Notes: generated from the letters alone by a model not told the origin. 64,000 nucleotides of DNA from Candidatus Omnitrophota bacterium (GCA_015233495.1 JADFXQ010000001.1:2790-66789), one strand, 5' to 3'; positions 26,780-31,243 are shown, counted from the stretch's first letter. Numbers and translations: made by a program.

Positions 26780-28180
26780 TTAACGGGTCTGGGCAATCCC
26801 TTTAAGCAGAGCCTCTTCAAAAAGATCAGTCGCGAGGTCCATTTCCGCTTCGCTGATGTACAAAGACGGCGCCAAGGTAAAAACGTTTTTATAATATCCG
26901 CCCACGTCTAAGACCAAACCGCGGCGTTTGCCGCCGGCGGTCAGTTTGCCGCTTAACCCGATATTCATGATCGCGTCGGTCAAGGCGCGGTTCGGCGTGA
27001 AACCGTCGGCTTGACACAACTCGATGCGGATCGCCAGCCCTAAACCTTCAACCTCGCCGACCTGCGGATATTTTTTCTTGAGGGTCTTAAGCCGGTCCAA
27101 AAAATATTTGCCCTTAGCCGGAACCGTCTCGCGGAAATTTTCTTCTTCCACCATCCGCATCACTTCCAGCCCGGTAGCCGTGCCTAAAGGATTGGAAGAA
27201 AACGTGGAATGCGTCGATCCCGGCGGAAAAACTTCCGGCGAGATCAGCGCCTCTTTCGCCCAGATCGCAGAAATCGGATTTAGGCCGTTGGTCAAGGCCT
27301 TGCCAAAAACCATTACATCCGGCACCACGCCAAAATGCTCAATCGCCCAGAGTTTGCCGGAGCGGTAAAAGCCCATCTGAATCTCGTCATCAACCAGCAG
27401 GACTTTATAACGGTCGAGGATTTTTTTCAATTCCCGGAAATAATCCTTAGGCGGAATAATATACCCGGCCGTGGCCTGAATCGGCTCGATAAAAAACGCC
27501 CCGAATTCGCAATGCTGGTTCTTGGTGTTGACCAAGGCGTAATATTCCGACTCAAACAATTTTTCAAACTGCCGCAAACACGCCATGCCGCAGGTTTCTT
27601 TCTGCATACCTAAATGACAACGGAAACAATAGGGATAGGGAATAAAATTCGCCCGGTCGCCGAAATGGCCAAAGCGTTCGCGGTAACGATAACTCGAGGT
27701 GATCGAAGTCGCGCCCAGCGTCCGGCCGTGATAACTGCCCATAAAAGCAAAGACCAGATTCTTTTTCGCGTGATTACGCACGACCTTCATCGCGTCTTCT
27801 ATCGCCGAGGCGCCGCCGACGTTAAAATGCACCCGGCCTTTTTCCTGAAAAGTCTTTTCAATGCCCCGGGCGATTTTGGCGGAAAGCAGTATCTTTTCCT
27901 TATGCAAATACTGGCAAGCCAATTGCGGCAGAGTTTCCACCTGCTTTAGCAAAGCAGCTTTAACCCGGGGATTATTATAGCCAAAAGTCGCCGCCGAGTA
28001 CCACATCTGCAAGTCGAGAAACGGCGTATCTTCCTCGTCATAAAGATAACTGCCTTCACAACGGGTAAAAATATTTATCTCTTTAGCGTAATGCACGGTG
28101 TCGCCCCAGGAACAATACCGCGACTCCAGGTCCAGCAGGTTTTCCTTATCTTCTGGTTTTTTTTGTTTGGGCTGAATCAT
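26780..28180 (-). CDS. class-III (omega) pyridoxal-phosphate aminotransferase
   Basis: VLLVDDEIQMGFYRSG...FGKALTNG, with the PLP-binding Lys in the FGK motif. Confidence 0.75.
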   Translation of the reverse strand: MIQPKQKKPEDKENLLDLESRYCSWGDTVHYAKEINIFTRCEGSYLYDEEDTPFLDLQMWYSAATFGYNNPRVKAALLKQVETLPQLACQYLHKEKILLSAKIARGIEKTFQEKGRVHFNVGGASAIEDAMKVVRNHAKKNLVFAFMGSYHGRTLGATSITSSYRYRERFGHFGDRANFIPYPYCFRCHLGMQKETCGMACLRQFEKLFESEYYALVNTKNQHCEFGAFFIEPIQATAGYIIPPKDYFRELKKILDRYKVLLVDDEIQMGFYRSGKLWAIEHFGVVPDVMVFGKALTNGLNPISAIWAKEALISPEVFPPGSTHSTFSSNPLGTATGLEVMRMVEEENFRETVPAKGKYFLDRLKTLKKKYPQVGEVEGLGLAIRIELCQADGFTPNRALTDAIMNIGLSGKLTAGGKRRGLVLDVGGYYKNVFTLAPSLYISEAEMDLATDLFEEALLKGIAQTR

Positions 28181-28835
28181 TCAACTCTCCTTCCAAGTAG
28201 AGGTAAACGTCTTTTAAATCTTTAAAAGCCGCGCACTTGATCTTTTTCGCTTGAAAATATTTTAACAAGGTGTCTTTGGCAAAAACCACATCCGCGAACT
28301 GGGCGGCGCAAATATCCGAGCGGCCGTCCCCGATATAAACACAATGTTTGCCCCGGCCCGTCTTGTCCACGACGTGGCCGCGCTTGCAATTGGCGCATTT
28401 TCCGCAAGCCGCGCTATGATGCGGAAATTCCGGAATCAACCGGTCGGCGCGAAACCACAGACGATTGGAAAAAATTTTTAAGCCGTATTGGCCGTTGATC
28501 CCGTTATTTTTTAAAATAGTTTCAATCAAAAAAGAAAAACTGTCACTGACAATCACCGGGGCGATACCGCGGCCTTTAAGCAAATCAAGAATCGGGATAA
28601 AATACGGATCAACCTTAATCTGCGACAAATAGGAAAGCAAACGCGGTTTATCCACCCGAATCGAGCGCAATTGACCTTCCAGACATTGTTTGGAAGTGAT
28701 GCGGCCCTTTGCCCAGTCCGCCTCCAGGATCTCCCATTCTTTGTCCTGGGAAAACCGCTGAATCAGGTCATCCAAAACGTCAAACGAGGTAATAGTATTG
28801 TCAAAATCCAAAAATACCCGGGTCTCCCGATCCAT
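28146..28835 (-). CDS. HAD-IB-type phosphatase (PSP/MtnX-like) with a Cys-rich insert
   Basis: N-terminal FLDFDNTIT (DxDxT) motif; CGKCANCKRGH cysteine cluster; GDGRSD motif IV. Confidence 0.6.
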   Translation of the reverse strand: MDRETRVFLDFDNTITSFDVLDDLIQRFSQDKEWEILEADWAKGRITSKQCLEGQLRSIRVDKPRLLSYLSQIKVDPYFIPILDLLKGRGIAPVIVSDSFSFLIETILKNNGINGQYGLKIFSNRLWFRADRLIPEFPHHSAACGKCANCKRGHVVDKTGRGKHCVYIGDGRSDICAAQFADVVFAKDTLLKYFQAKKIKCAAFKDLKDVYLYLEGELNDSAQTKKTRR

Positions 28836-29101
28836 TACGCCTTTTCCTCTTCGGCCGGCGACGCAACGCGTCCGGCAATATAAGCAACGATGTCTTTAAC
28901 CGTTTTGGCTTTCTCAATATCCGCGTCGGAAATCTTGATTTTAAATTGCTCTTCCAGCTCAAACACCGTCTCAATCGAACCAAAAGAATCCATGCCCAAA
29001 TCTTCCAATAACAAAGAATCCGCTTTAATTTTTGCGATGTCCATGCTTAATTTATCCGCCAACACTGCCTTGACTTTCGCTTCCACATTCGGTTGATTCA
29101 C
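28835..29101 (-). CDS. acyl carrier protein
   Basis: LGMDSFGSIE phosphopantetheine-attachment site; GTG start with GGAGGG Shine-Dalgarno, overlapping the fabF stop as GTGA. Confidence 0.7.
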   Translation of the reverse strand: MNQPNVEAKVKAVLADKLSMDIAKIKADSLLLEDLGMDSFGSIETVFELEEQFKIKISDADIEKAKTVKDIVAYIAGRVASPAEEEKA

Positions 29102-30354: not shown

Positions 30355-30364
30355 GCGTTTTCCT

Positions 30365-31243
30365 TCAATGACCGATCCGCGTAAAAAAATCTTTCATCCG
30401 ATCCACGACTTTGCCTCGTTCCTGATCTGCAGTTATAATGTGATAAGAATCCTCCAGCAGAACAATCTCCTTTTGCCGGGAAGCAATCCGGTCATAAATA
30501 AATTCCGCGTTCTTGACGCTGGTCATGTCATCTTCCTTGGCCTGAATAATCTGCACAGGCGCGGCGATGTGCGGCAAACGCGTCTTTAAGCGGCGCACCA
30601 AAATCTCTAATTGGCGCAAAAGACTGACCGGAAAAAGCGGATATCCATAACGGTCAATATCCGCGGCGTGTCCGGTGTGCATGCGCGAAAAATACTCATG
30701 CGCCTTTTGCTGGATCGCTTTATTCTTGATGCCATAGGGTGGATTTTCTTCAAAATAAATAAATCGATGCAGCTGCGTCCAATAAGCGACCGGCAGAAAA
30801 CAACGGTACCAAGGGCAGTTCCAACCGTCGTAAAATAAAGTCGGGGACAAACAACTGACCCCGGCAATGGCTTGAGGAAATTCATCCGCCAGCAAAAGCG
30901 CCAGCAGAGCGCCCATGGAAAGGCCGCTCACAAAAATTGTATCGCTGTATTCCCGCGCTTTAAAAAAAGCCTGGCGGCCAGTTTCATAAAAATCCTGCCA
31001 GGGTGTGTTTTTAAGAATCTGAAGCGGACGATCGTGATTGGCCAAACGCGGACACAATACGGAGAACCCGGCGCCGTTTAGCCGGTTAGCGAGAAAACGC
31101 ATTTCATTCGGCGTGCCGGTCAACCCATGCAACAAAATCACCGCCGCGCCATTTTTGCCGCGCATCGCGATTCCCTGATTCATCAAGGCCGACCCGGATG
31201 TCGGCTCCAACTTCGGCACTTGAAAAGAAAATTTAACCGCCAT
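30365..31243 (-). CDS. alpha/beta-hydrolase (lysophospholipase/thioesterase-like)
   Basis: GLSMG nucleophile elbow; Asp and His are spaced appropriately. Confidence 0.6.
   Translation of the reverse strand: MAVKFSFQVPKLEPTSGSALMNQGIAMRGKNGAAVILLHGLTGTPNEMRFLANRLNGAGFSVLCPRLANHDRPLQILKNTPWQDFYETGRQAFFKAREYSDTIFVSGLSMGALLALLLADEFPQAIAGVSCLSPTLFYDGWNCPWYRCFLPVAYWTQLHRFIYFEENPPYGIKNKAIQQKAHEYFSRMHTGHAADIDRYGYPLFPVSLLRQLEILVRRLKTRLPHIAAPVQIIQAKEDDMTSVKNAEFIYDRIASRQKEIVLLEDSYHIITADQERGKVVDRMKDFFTRIGH

Follow-up and report, generated by a model that had tools for sequence, protein, structure and literature searches.

A two-component-linked operon in an uncultured Omnitrophota bacterium joins a FabF-ACP pair to a conserved phosphatase and atypical PLP enzyme, with an amine-bearing envelope lipid as candidate product

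Results

A compact operon downstream of a two-component system

The window, by which we mean the whole 64 kb stretch of DNA analysed from an uncultured Omnitrophota bacterium, carries on its minus strand a response regulator and sensor histidine kinase (RR-HK) followed by genes for a hydrolase (ABH), a ketosynthase (KAS), an acyl carrier protein (ACP), a phosphatase (HAD), a class-III PLP enzyme (AT3) and a ureohydrolase-fold protein (ARGf), in that order (Table 1). The genes named in a preliminary description of this DNA, together with their order, strand and family assignments, were all found where it had placed them. From ABH through ARGf, successive genes are separated by 10 nt, an overlap, a second overlap, a 35-nt overlap and 17 nt. 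The GTG start of ACP at 29101 overlaps the KAS stop within GTGA, as had been described, with AAGGAGG lying 7 nt upstream of that GTG, and the HAD start is overlapped by the ACP stop within TAATG. Because of this tight spacing and these overlaps, we read ABH-KAS-ACP-HAD-AT3-ARGf as one operon with predicted translational coupling.

Table 1. Features of the locus, with positions counted from the first nucleotide of the window.
Feature	Coordinates	Strand	Family or basis
Response regulator, OmpR family, CusR/CopR-like (RR)	32850..33551	-	Response_reg + Trans_reg_C
Sensor histidine kinase, CusS/CopS-like (HK)	31403..32848	-	HAMP/HisKA/HATPase
Operator-like motif ATTAAGAAAATTAAAGAATTTCTTAATCTT	31329..31358	-	86 nt upstream of ABH start
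Alpha/beta serine hydrolase, bacterial monoacylglycerol-lipase (MGL) / Est30 type (ABH)	30365..31243	-	Hydrolase_4
FabF-type beta-ketoacyl-ACP synthase II (KAS)	29098..30354	-	TIGR03150
Acyl carrier protein (ACP), 88 aa from GTG 29101	28835..29101	-	PP-binding
HAD-IB phosphatase, MtnX/PHOSPHO-like, C-x2-C-x2-C motif (HAD)	28146..28835	-	TIGR01489, Put_Phosphatase PF06888
Atypical class-III PLP enzyme (AT3)	26780..28180	-	Aminotran_3
Divergent ureohydrolase-fold metallohydrolase (ARGf; NCBI hypothetical protein HQL23_00140)	25824..26762	-	AF2 + Foldseek

The cluster is conserved around a phosphatase and a PLP enzyme

Because the neighbourhood is conserved in 77 other loci (L numbers below designate loci), drawn from Omnitrophota and from high-GC Opitutaceae-labelled MAGs, the grouping of these genes is not a matter of chance; we read the operon as a local form of a gene system that is kept across Omnitrophota and in Opitutaceae-labelled genomes. 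The invariant pair over the 77 loci is HAD-AT3, usually with ABH, and HAD adjoins AT3 in almost all of them; frequent partners are ARGf, a transferase resembling FemAB/GNAT, a couple of half-size EamA proteins similar to ArnE/ArnF, and an aminotransferase of the DegT type. Where AT3 was flanked by 6 kb or more on both sides (36 loci), HAD was present in at least 30, ABH in 27, the EamA-half pair in 21, ARGf, DegT and the FemAB-like gene in 17 each, and KAS in 7.

Several of these arrangements bear on function. An 81%-identical relative encodes ABH-HAD-AT3-FemAB-EamA-EamA in one overlapping operon, and at L048 an operon FemAB-EamA-EamA-KAS-ACP is convergent with ABH-HAD-AT3-ARGf. The best matches of the EamA halves are ArnE and ArnF, at weak scores (33-37 bits vs cut-offs of 92-99), and the pair also matches MdtI weakly. 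One locus, L015, places the cluster amid genes resembling ArnT, ArnC and ArnB, together with those for a UDP-4-keto-pentose synthase and a formyltransferase (L010 is similar), and at L088 the ARGf position is occupied by Polysacc_deac_1, a NodB-type polysaccharide deacetylase. Genes of the CpxP/Spy-like LTXXQ and Metal_resist families recur next to the module. The FemAB-like neighbour (PF13480/PF04339) may, we presume, be kin to CCNA_01212, a ceramide synthase of bacteria (bCerS).

Core enzymes of the cluster

AT3 belongs to the class-III family (Aminotran_3, PF00202; E = 1e-78) and is 65-83% identical over 80 loci, reaching 80-83% in the four nearest relatives. The Schiff-base Lys (K in FGKALTNG) and the PLP Asp (D in DDEIQMGF) are invariant in all 78 members compared, and in the same 78 members Thr has replaced both the gate Glu within QxTGG and, within NVFTxAPS, the carboxylate-binding Arg, a residue that racemase and transaminase relatives retain within R-[IL]-x-P-P-L. 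We take these gate positions to be the equivalents of human OAT E235 and R413, which bind glutamate/2-oxoglutarate. Because both of these binding residues are lost, ordinary transamination by AT3 is uncertain, and the enzyme could be a lyase, mutase or racemase. Assignments to ArgD, GABA-AT, BioA and OAT were rejected (scores of 216, 216, 201 and 190 vs NCBIfam cut-offs of 410, 507, 405 and 378, respectively), and no NCBIfam equivalog cut-off was reached, a result that counts in favour of the preliminary description. The closest PDB matches, at ~30% identity, are two racemases, one for Ala/Ser from Thermococcales and one of broad specificity (9wqz, 9wrf).

HAD passes the cut-off for the MtnX-like HAD-IB family (TIGR01489; 116 vs 81.55), and its DxDxT and GDGxSD catalytic motifs are invariant in 62/62 members. 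The CxxCxxC insert pointed out in the preliminary description is genuine, being kept in 58-62 of the 62 members and falling, in the alignment to B. subtilis MtnX (PDB 2fea), on that protein's Cys-rich cap. MtnX proper was rejected as an identity for HAD (equivalog scores of 63.8 vs 303 and 70.5 vs 292), with no mtn genes nearby. The pathway put forward in the preliminary description leaves this phosphatase, AT3's most constant partner, without a role.

ABH matches Hydrolase_4 (E = 1e-18), its nearest solved relatives are the lipases/esterases thermostable MGL, LipS and Est30, and all 52 members keep its GLSxG Ser, Asp and His. For ARGf, an AlphaFold (AF2) model with a pLDDT of 92.8 matched agmatinase, guanidinopropionase and formimidoylglutamase in Foldseek (TM 0.5-0.57, probability 1.00), and this predicted structure confirms an arginase/ureohydrolase fold for the gene after AT3, as had been proposed. 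Its match to Pfam Arginase totals 24.1 bits overall with no single stretch passing alone, and there were zero sequence matches in NCBIfam and PDB. The motifs GSGDxH, DxHPD and DKD and residue D256 are invariant, the three motifs resembling binuclear-metal ligand motifs by sequence.

The KAS-ACP pair is an add-on of FabF type

KAS exceeds the cut-off of the fabF equivalog (TIGR03150; 549.7 bits vs 493.75), and solved FabFs all match it about equally, at ~400 bits. Its translation contains STACASG, HGTSTEAND, SSTKSMIGHTIGAAG and NSFGFG, with the Cys-His-His motifs intact; going by the residue roles of E. coli FabF, we take these to represent the Cys-His-His triad, Lys and a Phe gatekeeper. Judged by its sequence, KAS is an ordinary FabF, indistinguishable from the housekeeping enzyme. 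ACP has a PP-binding domain (PF00550) with the Ser attachment motif LGMDSF, and passes the subfamily model NF002148 (73.8 vs a cut-off of 71) while falling below the equivalog TIGR00517 (63.4 vs 70.45).

The genomic context differs from that of housekeeping fab genes, where acpP lies upstream and the setting is amid or close to fabH/D/G/Z: the order here is KAS->ACP, and none of fabH/D/G/Z/I/K, acc, pls or a PPTase was found among all non-overlapping ORFs of at least 70 aa in the 64 kb window, in agreement with the earlier remark that fabH, fabG, fabZ and fabI are not nearby. Across eight KAS contexts read, none had a fab operon setting and seven had the KAS->ACP order, the exception being L083, where a thioesterase follows KAS. 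On the premise of the preliminary description that this lineage appears to lack fatty-acid synthesis, one survey has reported genes for such synthesis in the Omnitrophota class Koll11 (PMC13014828).

Orthologues of the KAS->ACP pair are also found in unrelated contexts apart from AT3, alone or with other partners, and the KAS tree intermingles AT3-linked copies with unlinked ones, the window KAS being sister to those of the unlinked contexts L082 and L086. The pair is joined to the AT3 cluster in at least five independent arrangements in two phyla, so that the link is not chance. KAS-ACP-ABH-HAD-AT3 occurs in that order in L084, L088 and L066, L087 keeps KAS-ACP-ABH with HAD-AT3 absent, and non-orthologous KAS+ACP pairs lie beside the cluster in L005, L008 and L079. 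The high-GC Opitutaceae-type loci have the pair nearly always adjacent and co-operonic with FemAB-EamA-EamA, and it is absent at this site from the four nearest relatives, whose order is RR-HK-ABH-HAD-AT3. We read KAS-ACP as an addition to a gene set that is itself widely conserved and so far unstudied.

A conserved motif suggests two-component control

RR and HK both score just below the heavy-metal models (274.2 vs a cut-off of 279.2 for the response regulator TIGR01387; 288.8 vs 292.55 for TIGR01386). Orthologues of RR lie upstream of the cluster in L001-L003, L014, L057 and L081, HK is at the same position in relatives, and the two-component linkage is kept in L001-L003, L081, L014, L016, L057 and L087. 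When the HK-ABH spacers of the window, L001, L002, L003 and L081 were compared, the sole conserved block was ATTAAGAAAATTAAAGAATTTCTTAATCTT, a 30-bp motif with TTAAG/TAAAG/TTAAT repeats ~10 bp apart and an inverted pair ATTAAGA/TCTTAAT, placed identically in these four relatives. No second copy occurs in the window even with three mismatches allowed, where 0 are expected. We infer that RR binds this putative operator, and the operon is probably switched on through it, upstream of ABH, by the adjacent CusRS/CopRS-like system. The two-component control raised as a possibility in the preliminary description thus gains from both the conserved linkage and the motif.

A candidate envelope-lipid pathway

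We tentatively propose, with somewhat less than even confidence, that the operon specifies a two-component-controlled, Arn/Hex-like pathway that would make or remodel an acylated, amine-bearing envelope lipid as its candidate product. The constant core would be the HAD-IB phosphatase coupled to the atypical class-III PLP enzyme, almost always with the MGL-type hydrolase, around which the variable partners would be ARGf (or, in its stead, a NodB-type deacetylase) as the metal amidohydrolase, an N-acyltransferase resembling FemAB/GNAT, a pair of ArnE/ArnF-like 4-TM transporters, a DegT-type aminotransferase and the FabF->ACP pair. AT3 would put on or handle the amino group of a phosphorylated small precursor, and an acyl chain, held on the dedicated ACP and extended by FabF, would be joined to this amine precursor, by the FemAB-like enzyme where present, with ABH serving as an acyl-transfer enzyme or a thioester/ester hydrolase. 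HAD would then take off the phosphate, as Cj1435 does in C. jejuni, ARGf would unmask or trim an N-acyl or amidino group, and the ArnE/F-like pair would export it to the outer face. The outcome would be a cationic, acylated envelope lipid or glycolipid made under envelope or metal stress, following the logic of PmrAB-Arn and HexRK-HexSDF.

FemAB-like, EamA-half and DegT genes are all missing from the 64 kb window, so this envelope reading rests on the orthologous clusters elsewhere. We counted in its favour the operon coupling, the full-flank co-occurrence, the FemAB-EamA operons, the KAS-ACP juxtapositions, the arn setting of L015, the deacetylase swap of L088, the lipase kin of ABH, the best matches of the EamA halves to ArnE/ArnF, the LTXXQ/Metal_resist neighbours, the operator-like motif next to a CusRS-like system and the published precedents from C. 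jejuni and C. difficile described below; against it stand the weakness of those ArnE/F matches, the single arn locus, the gate loss of AT3, the housekeeping-like KAS with its interleaved tree and the lack of any glycosyltransferase constant among cluster members in the related loci. A bolder extension, which we regard as speculative and rather doubtful, is that the product would belong to a new class of envelope lipid, containing an amine and acylated through an amide or ester, made by an unrecognised pathway shared by Omnitrophota and some Verrucomicrobiota, in which the gate-less AT3, the coupled Cys-motif HAD, the lipase-like hydrolase, a new ureohydrolase-fold amidohydrolase family and a dedicated FabF/ACP would be the builders, with ArnE/F-like export and an envelope/metal-stress two-component switch acting through a defined operator.

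Alternative readings of the cluster

KAS->ACP could instead be housekeeping fabF/acpP wandering in Omnitrophota genomes beside a separate soluble salvage or catabolic module, ABH-HAD-AT3-ARGf, for a phospho-amine or lipid head group (for example a lysolipid esterase, a phosphoethanolamine-type phosphatase and a phospho-lyase-like PLP enzyme). The FabF-like scores, the unlinked sisters of the window KAS and the pairs found alone or with other partners agree with this, as do the placement of HAD within the PHOSPHO1/MtnX group and the absence from AT3 of the transaminase Glu/Arg gate, phospho-lyases being known in class III. We nevertheless judge it unlikely, given that at least five independent juxtapositions over two phyla are far above expectation for an unrelated gene, that the pair is nearly always adjacent to and co-operonic with FemAB-EamA-EamA in the high-GC Opitutaceae-type loci, and that a catabolic module would not usually form so tight an operon with transporter and N-acyltransferase genes as is found in relatives.

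Quite unlikely, in our estimate, is a beta-amino route in which FabF would make a beta-ketoacyl-ACP, AT3 would convert it to a beta-aminoacyl product (or a 2-aminoalkane after decarboxylation) and ABH would release either a small amino-lipid metabolite or a beta-amino fatty acid in free form, as in iturin KS-AMT chemistry. In the window, L066, L084 and L088, KAS-ACP does adjoin ABH-HAD-AT3 directly, non-orthologous pairs take that place in L005, L008 and L079, and AT3 is none of the housekeeping enzymes ArgD, GabT and BioA; yet AT3 lacks a nearby KAS/ACP in most loci, the four closest relatives included, AT3 is missing from L087 despite KAS-ACP-ABH, such chemistry has no need of the phosphatase that is AT3's constant partner, and a fused AMT domain, acyl-ligase and NRPS are all missing. 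Of the minimal kit of ACP, KAS and transaminase suggested earlier, the KAS->ACP pair is linked to the cluster beyond chance in several independent arrangements, but the conserved unit is HAD-AT3 (with ABH), and the earlier interpretation is only partly supported.

Ureohydrolase followed by class-III transaminase is a known catabolic pairing, and polyamine or guanidino metabolism, with ARGf agmatinase- or guanidinobutyrase-like, AT3 the next omega-amine transaminase and the EamA pair an MdtIJ-like exporter, would suit the fold and metal-ligand-like motifs of ARGf and the weak MdtI match; we find it improbable, because ARGf is absent from about half of the clusters and replaced by a NodB-type deacetylase in L088, AT3 has lost the 2-oxoglutarate-binding Arg, and HAD, ABH, KAS/ACP and the FemAB-like gene are left without a role. 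That AT3 is an amino-acid racemase/epimerase supplying a D-amino acid for the FemAB-like enzyme to attach to an envelope component is very improbable, since the racemases that are its top PDB matches are only ~30% identical and keep the carboxylate-binding Arg (R-I-x-P-P-L) lost in 78/78 AT3, even though relatives do have FemAB-like neighbours.

Comparison with known systems

The iturin/mycosubtilin KS-AMT systems likewise encode a ketosynthase, carrier protein and class-III PLP fold close together, but as domains of one megasynthase with an acyl-ligase and NRPS. In our cluster each protein stands alone, AT3 can do without KAS/ACP as neighbours, and the window holds no AMP-binding, condensation or PKS domains; the earlier analogy with iturin-type pathways thus fails for want of a megasynthase, fused AMT domain or NRPS. 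Dedicated ACP and KAS proteins serve envelope and signal lipids in rhizobial NodF/NodE with NodA/NodB and in AcpXL with FabF1XL/FabF2XL (lipid A), where, once a deacetylase has exposed the amine of an amino sugar, a special acyl chain is attached to that sugar by an N- or O-link, and the housekeeping FAS performs the reductive steps. The cluster shares with these a FabF-like KAS with its own ACP, and differs in its KAS->ACP order, in lacking a NodA or LpxXL-type transferase and in a KAS not divergent from FabF.

In the C. jejuni HS:2 capsule pathway, the DHAP transaminase Cj1437 yields a phospho-amine, the amide ligase Cj1438 joins it in an amide bond and the HAD enzyme Cj1435 dephosphorylates the product (PMC11800397), and this order of aminotransferase, phospho-amine, amide and HAD gives the constant HAD-AT3 pairing a rationale. 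The likeness drawn here is one of function, and the ligase there is of ATP-grasp type, acting on glucuronate and not acyl-ACP, while AT3 is without the usual Glu/2-oxoglutarate residues. HexRK-HexSDF of Clostridioides difficile, in which a two-component system governs the deacetylase and the flippase behind the aminohexosyl glycolipid HNHDRG, is similarly a small operon under an adjacent two-component system, and its product is a free-amine membrane glycolipid giving resistance to cationic/cell-envelope agents (PMC10128005). This is a functional analogy only, as Hex uses a GT of the MGDG-synthase type, a NodB deacetylase and a flippase resembling MprF, without a PLP enzyme, HAD, FabF or ACP.

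The Arn system (ArnB, ArnA, ArnC, ArnD, ArnE/F and ArnT, adding L-Ara4N to lipid A under PmrAB/PhoPQ) has no counterpart of the HAD-IB phosphatase, class-III AT3 or MGL-type hydrolase and no FabF/ACP; conversely, ArnA, ArnB, ArnC, ArnT, ArnE and ArnF are absent from the window, relatives have ArnE/F-like halves and DegT-like genes only, and full arn flanks occur only in L015. The two nonetheless share, on the pathway proposed here, two-component control, an amine made by a PLP aminotransferase, a pairing of N-acylation with de-N-acylation (FemAB-like with ARGf or NodB-type here, ArnA-FT with ArnD there) and, in relatives, a half-size EamA pair that best matches ArnE/ArnF, and in L015 the cluster itself sits inside an arn-type locus.

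Operon layout and protein families

The window belongs to a Candidatus Omnitrophota MAG. The gene row proposed in the preliminary description was borne out on the minus strand, with all genes present and in matching families (see table). Its reading of the ACP start was also correct: the GTG overlaps the KAS stop (as GTGA), and AAGGAGG stands 7 nt before it. The ACP stop (TAA) overlaps the HAD ATG, and of the other junctions two are gaps, of 10 nt and 17 nt, and one is a 35-nt overlap; ABH to ARGf thus form one translationally coupled operon. The reported absence of other fab genes nearby extends across the 64 kb, where a Pfam scan of all non-overlapping ORFs of ≥70 aa found no further fab, acc, pls or phosphopantetheinyl-transferase genes.

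Table. Coordinates of features in the window
Feature	Coordinates	Strand
OmpR-family response regulator (RR)	32850-33551	minus
HAMP/HisKA sensor kinase (HK)	31403-32848	minus
Putative 30-bp operator	31329-31358	
GC-rich hairpin with T run	31244-31274	
Alpha/beta hydrolase (ABH)	30365-31243	minus
Beta-ketoacyl-ACP synthase (KAS)	29098-30354	minus
Acyl carrier protein (ACP), between KAS and HAD	GTG start 29101	minus
HAD-IB phosphatase (HAD)	28146-28835	minus
Class-III PLP enzyme (AT3)	26780-28180	minus
Ureohydrolase-fold protein (ARGf), 312 aa	25824-26762	minus
ORF, 719 aa	251-2410	
Serpin	12349-13563	
HicA	14512-14757	
AddB-like PD-(D/E)XK nuclease	16358-19249	
tRNA-Val, then AbiEii toxin, DUF6577 and RhuM	19335-22444	
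AddA/RecB-like helicase	22620-25808	
DUF4160/DUF2442 pair	36305-36850	
ORF, 864 aa	40942-43536	
PIN domain	45212-45619	
Giant ORF, 2,853 aa	45689-54250	
ORF, 563 aa	57277-58968	
MGDG-synthase-like glycosyltransferase and GmhB/PNK3P-like HAD phosphatase	61959-63851	

Judged by its sequence, KAS is an ordinary FabF: it scores 549.7 against the TIGR03150 equivalog cut-off of 493.75, matches solved FabFs of Thermus, Listeria, Synechocystis, Bacillus and E. coli alike at ~400 bits, and has the Cys-His-His, Lys and Phe motifs. ACP exceeds an ACP subfamily model and falls below the AcpP equivalog cut-off, and a composition check for recent insertion found the KAS-ACP pair only mildly higher in GC (0.57-0.58 vs ~0.49), too slight a difference to settle the point. 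Five close homologues of this FabF at 64-68% identity (P0260, P0268, P0297, P0347 and P0321) are fused to a response-regulator receiver, PilZ or methyltransferase domain, which is unusual for FabF and hints at signal-regulated condensing enzymes in the lineage. AT3 and ARGf have 100%-identical NCBI entries (for ARGf, hypothetical protein HQL23_00140) on one contig of 187,318 bp, whereas KAS has no exact match in a collection of 5.8 billion proteins (best 71%); public annotation may therefore have missed the gene or listed it as a pseudogene.

AT3 reaches no NCBIfam cut-off (ArgD 216 vs 410, GabT 216 vs 507, BioA 201 vs 405). Its best solved relatives, which carry an R-[IL]-x-P-P-L arginine and a Q-G-[ED] acid, are Thermococcales racemases and aminotransferases, and AT3 acting as a racemase is accordingly among the rival explanations. 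All 78 family members keep the Schiff-base Lys and the PLP Asp, and the same 78 have Thr at both gate sites (NVFTxAPS and QxTGG), which we take to be the positions of the ornithine aminotransferase E235/R413 gate that binds glutamate/2-oxoglutarate. Because Thr replaces these gate residues, AT3 may not be a standard 2-oxoglutarate transaminase; BioA and HemL likewise do without such a gate.

Of the other operon proteins, ABH, with invariant Ser/Asp/His, is nearest to bacterial monoacylglycerol lipases, LipS and Est30. HAD is of the MtnX/PHOSPHO type, above TIGR01489 and below the MtnX equivalog, and its C-x2-C-x2-C motif is a family-wide feature that lines up with the Cys-rich cap in the MtnX structure 2fea. 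No PDB entry matches ARGf in sequence; its predicted structure (pLDDT 92.8) is a ureohydrolase fold that keeps the invariant GSGDxH, DxHPD and DKD motifs. Its best structural matches are agmatinase, guanidinopropionase and formimidoylglutamase, at TM 0.5-0.57 and 12-15% identity; the fold also figures in a less likely rival explanation, polyamine or guanidino metabolism.

A conserved core and a dispensable ketosynthase-carrier pair

A genome scan gave 80 loci with AT3 at 65-82% identity, mostly in Omnitrophota MAGs; about 12 of the loci are high-GC (0.58-0.68), most of these Opitutaceae-labelled. Both the mapping of window proteins and unbiased clustering of all ORFs revealed HAD-AT3 as a near-invariant pair. 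In the 36 loci that extend ≥6 kb to either side, AT3 was accompanied by ABH in 27, by two half-size EamA proteins (weak best matches ArnE and ArnF) in 21, by ARGf, a DegT-type aminotransferase and a FemAB_like/Acetyltransf_6 protein in 17 each, and by a FabF-type KAS in 7. Homologues of the FemAB-like, EamA-half and DegT proteins are absent from the window's 64 kb. In the four nearest relatives (L001-L003 plus L081, which carries protein P0007) the order is RR-HK-ABH-HAD-AT3, and because ABH abuts HAD in all four, KAS-ACP is an insertion or relocation particular to the window's lineage. The source genome of L081 holds an overlapping operon, ABH-HAD-AT3-FemAB-EamA-EamA.

Seen from the other side, the window KAS shares 63-71% identity with its best 120 homologues, and we examined seven of their contexts (L082-L088). 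A fab operon surrounded KAS in none of the seven, and the order was KAS then ACP wherever ACP was present. Two contexts carry KAS-ACP-ABH-HAD-AT3, accompanied in L084 by a convergent FemAB-EamA-EamA and followed in L088 by a Polysacc_deac_1 protein at the usual ARGf position; this replacement by a NodB-type deacetylase suggests that ARGf does a de-N-acylation-type step. L087 reads RR-HK-small protein-KAS-ACP-ABH, with an orthologous ABH and without HAD-AT3. In their place this one Omnitrophota contig has an asparagine-synthase-like amidotransferase (11640-13343), which may be an alternative means of nitrogen introduction. Elsewhere the pair stands alone (L082), precedes an aldehyde dehydrogenase (L085) or adjoins an AMP-binding/PCP gene (L086), and in L083 KAS is followed by a thioesterase.

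A neighbor-joining tree interleaved AT3-linked and unlinked KAS, with the window KAS sister to L082 and L086, both unlinked, and the Opitutaceae-type clade sister to L066 and L084, both linked. At least five arrangements bring KAS-ACP into the cluster (that of the window; L066/L084/L088; L064; L042; and the Opitutaceae type, in which FemAB-EamA-EamA-KAS-ACP of L048 is one operon), and non-orthologous KAS+ACP pairs stand at the cluster in L005, L008 and L079. With one pair per ~2,000-gene genome, such recurrent joining lies far above chance. The functional link is real, and the system as a whole is real, tight and conserved, but its core is other than the preliminary description assumed, KAS-ACP being a dispensable neighbor.

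Envelope and stress signals around the cluster

ArnT-like, ArnC-like (two copies) and ArnB-like genes surround the L015 cluster on its two flanks. This locus also has an LmtA-like methyltransferase as well as a formyltransferase and a UDP-4-keto-pentose synthase that both score above cut-off. Beside the module, genes for CpxP/Spy-like LTXXQ proteins and Metal_resist genes are found repeatedly, and in the P0007 genome Metal_resist/LTXXQ genes follow it. Small secreted proteins of 142-144 aa lie just upstream of KAS-ACP in L084 (7368-7796) and L088 (8397-8825), where they have an LTxxQ (CpxP/Spy-like) motif, and likewise in L066 (~4322-4705, a homologue) and L087 (8478-8912, unrelated by sequence).

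The two-component system is CusRS/CopRS-like, slightly below curated cut-offs, and accompanies the cluster in several lineages. The HK-ABH spacer has diverged except for one conserved block, ATTAAGAAAAyyAAAGnnnnnCTTAATCTT. This block has TTAAG-type repeats at ~10-bp spacing, is unique in the window (0 expected) and keeps its position in L001-L003 and L081; we infer that it is the regulator's putative operator. Promoter and terminator scans gave nothing beyond shuffled expectation. A hairpin (GCGCC-loop-GGCGC) and T run directly before the ABH start codon, present in the window and absent from L001-L003 and L081, may serve as an attenuator or as the terminator of HK.

Other features of the window

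Rfam matched only two tRNAs in the window. A tRNA-Val precedes AbiEii, DUF6577 and RhuM genes wedged between the AddB-like and AddA/RecB-like genes, in what looks like a small defense/toxin-antitoxin island that entered at the tRNA and split an addAB pair. The small HicA, DUF4160/DUF2442 and PIN genes are also of toxin-antitoxin type, the latter two interrupting a row of ABC-transporter genes. A full-length serpin (PF00079, E = 3.5e-120), here in a bacterial genome, adjoins a Fic-like C-terminal fragment ORF. The giant ORF has only a sub-threshold Pfam match (HATPase_c_3, residues 2018-2110), and the ORFs of 719, 864 and 563 aa have no Pfam match. The MGDG-synthase-like gene adjoins the GmhB/PNK3P-like phosphatase gene, and with another MGDG-synthase-like gene 7 kb from KAS-ACP in L085, glycosyl-diacylglycerol lipids are suggested for these organisms.

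Proposed pathway and its comparison with known systems

The cluster is best described as a putative new form of two-component-controlled envelope-lipid modification. More specifically, we tentatively propose, inferring every step, a pathway that stress would induce and whose product would be an envelope lipid or glycolipid both acylated and amine-bearing. In it, AT3 and HAD would act on a phospho-amine precursor, KAS, ACP and ABH would supply and transfer the acyl chain, and ARGf would trim an N-substituent.

Among the rivals, the beta-amino fatty acid route of the preliminary description takes KAS, ACP and AT3 as its kit, two of which are the dispensable neighbors. Its premise of a lineage lacking fatty-acid synthesis is unsupported, not refuted, since one survey reports fatty-acid biosynthesis genes in the Omnitrophota class Koll11 (PMC13014828); Seymour et al. 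2023 make no mention of lipid synthesis. Another rival, a housekeeping FabF/AcpP beside a soluble phospho-amine salvage module, faces the recurrent joining of KAS-ACP to the cluster. A biotin route (BioA-like AT3, BioH-like ABH, FabF/ACP) is out on the BioA score and the lack of bioF/D/B, and leaves HAD and the FemAB/EamA partners without a role; methionine salvage is out on MtnX equivalog scores and gene context, a sphingolipid route for want of an Spt-type alpha-oxoamine synthase, and the analogy to polyketide-synthase-derived sphingolipids because that route depends on an alpha-oxoamine synthase, not a class-III enzyme such as AT3 (PMC12134224). The FemAB-like neighbor might be related to the bacterial ceramide synthase bCerS.

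Our literature search on the cluster's Pfam families found no published description of it. Omnitrophota are an abundant group, for the most part uncultured and ultra-small, whose envelope chemistry is not known to have been described. With its link to a stress sensor and the conservation seen in AT3 (65-83% identity across the phylum, and present in Opitutaceae-labelled genomes too), such a gene set likely shapes surface charge or host/prey contact. It gives enzymology three leads: class-III PLP enzymes lacking the Glu/Arg gate, ureohydrolase-fold proteins without known-function relatives at the sequence level, and a Cys-motif HAD coupled near-invariantly to a PLP enzyme. RR and its putative operator make a ready regulatory system. 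For annotation, the case shows that what looks like an orphan kit of FabF, ACP and transaminase can have arisen by secondary fusion to a core that is older and of another kind.

The logic of the envelope-lipid proposal comes from known systems. The Arn pathway, rhizobial NodFE/NodAB and AcpXL provide N-acyl masking and unmasking, flipping by ArnE/F and dedicated envelope-lipid KAS and ACP pairs. In C. jejuni, an aminotransferase yields serinol phosphate, which is joined as an amide before the HAD phosphatase Cj1435 removes the phosphate (PMC11800397), and in C. difficile the HexRK two-component system drives a synthase/deacetylase/flippase operon for an aminoglycolipid (PMC10128005).
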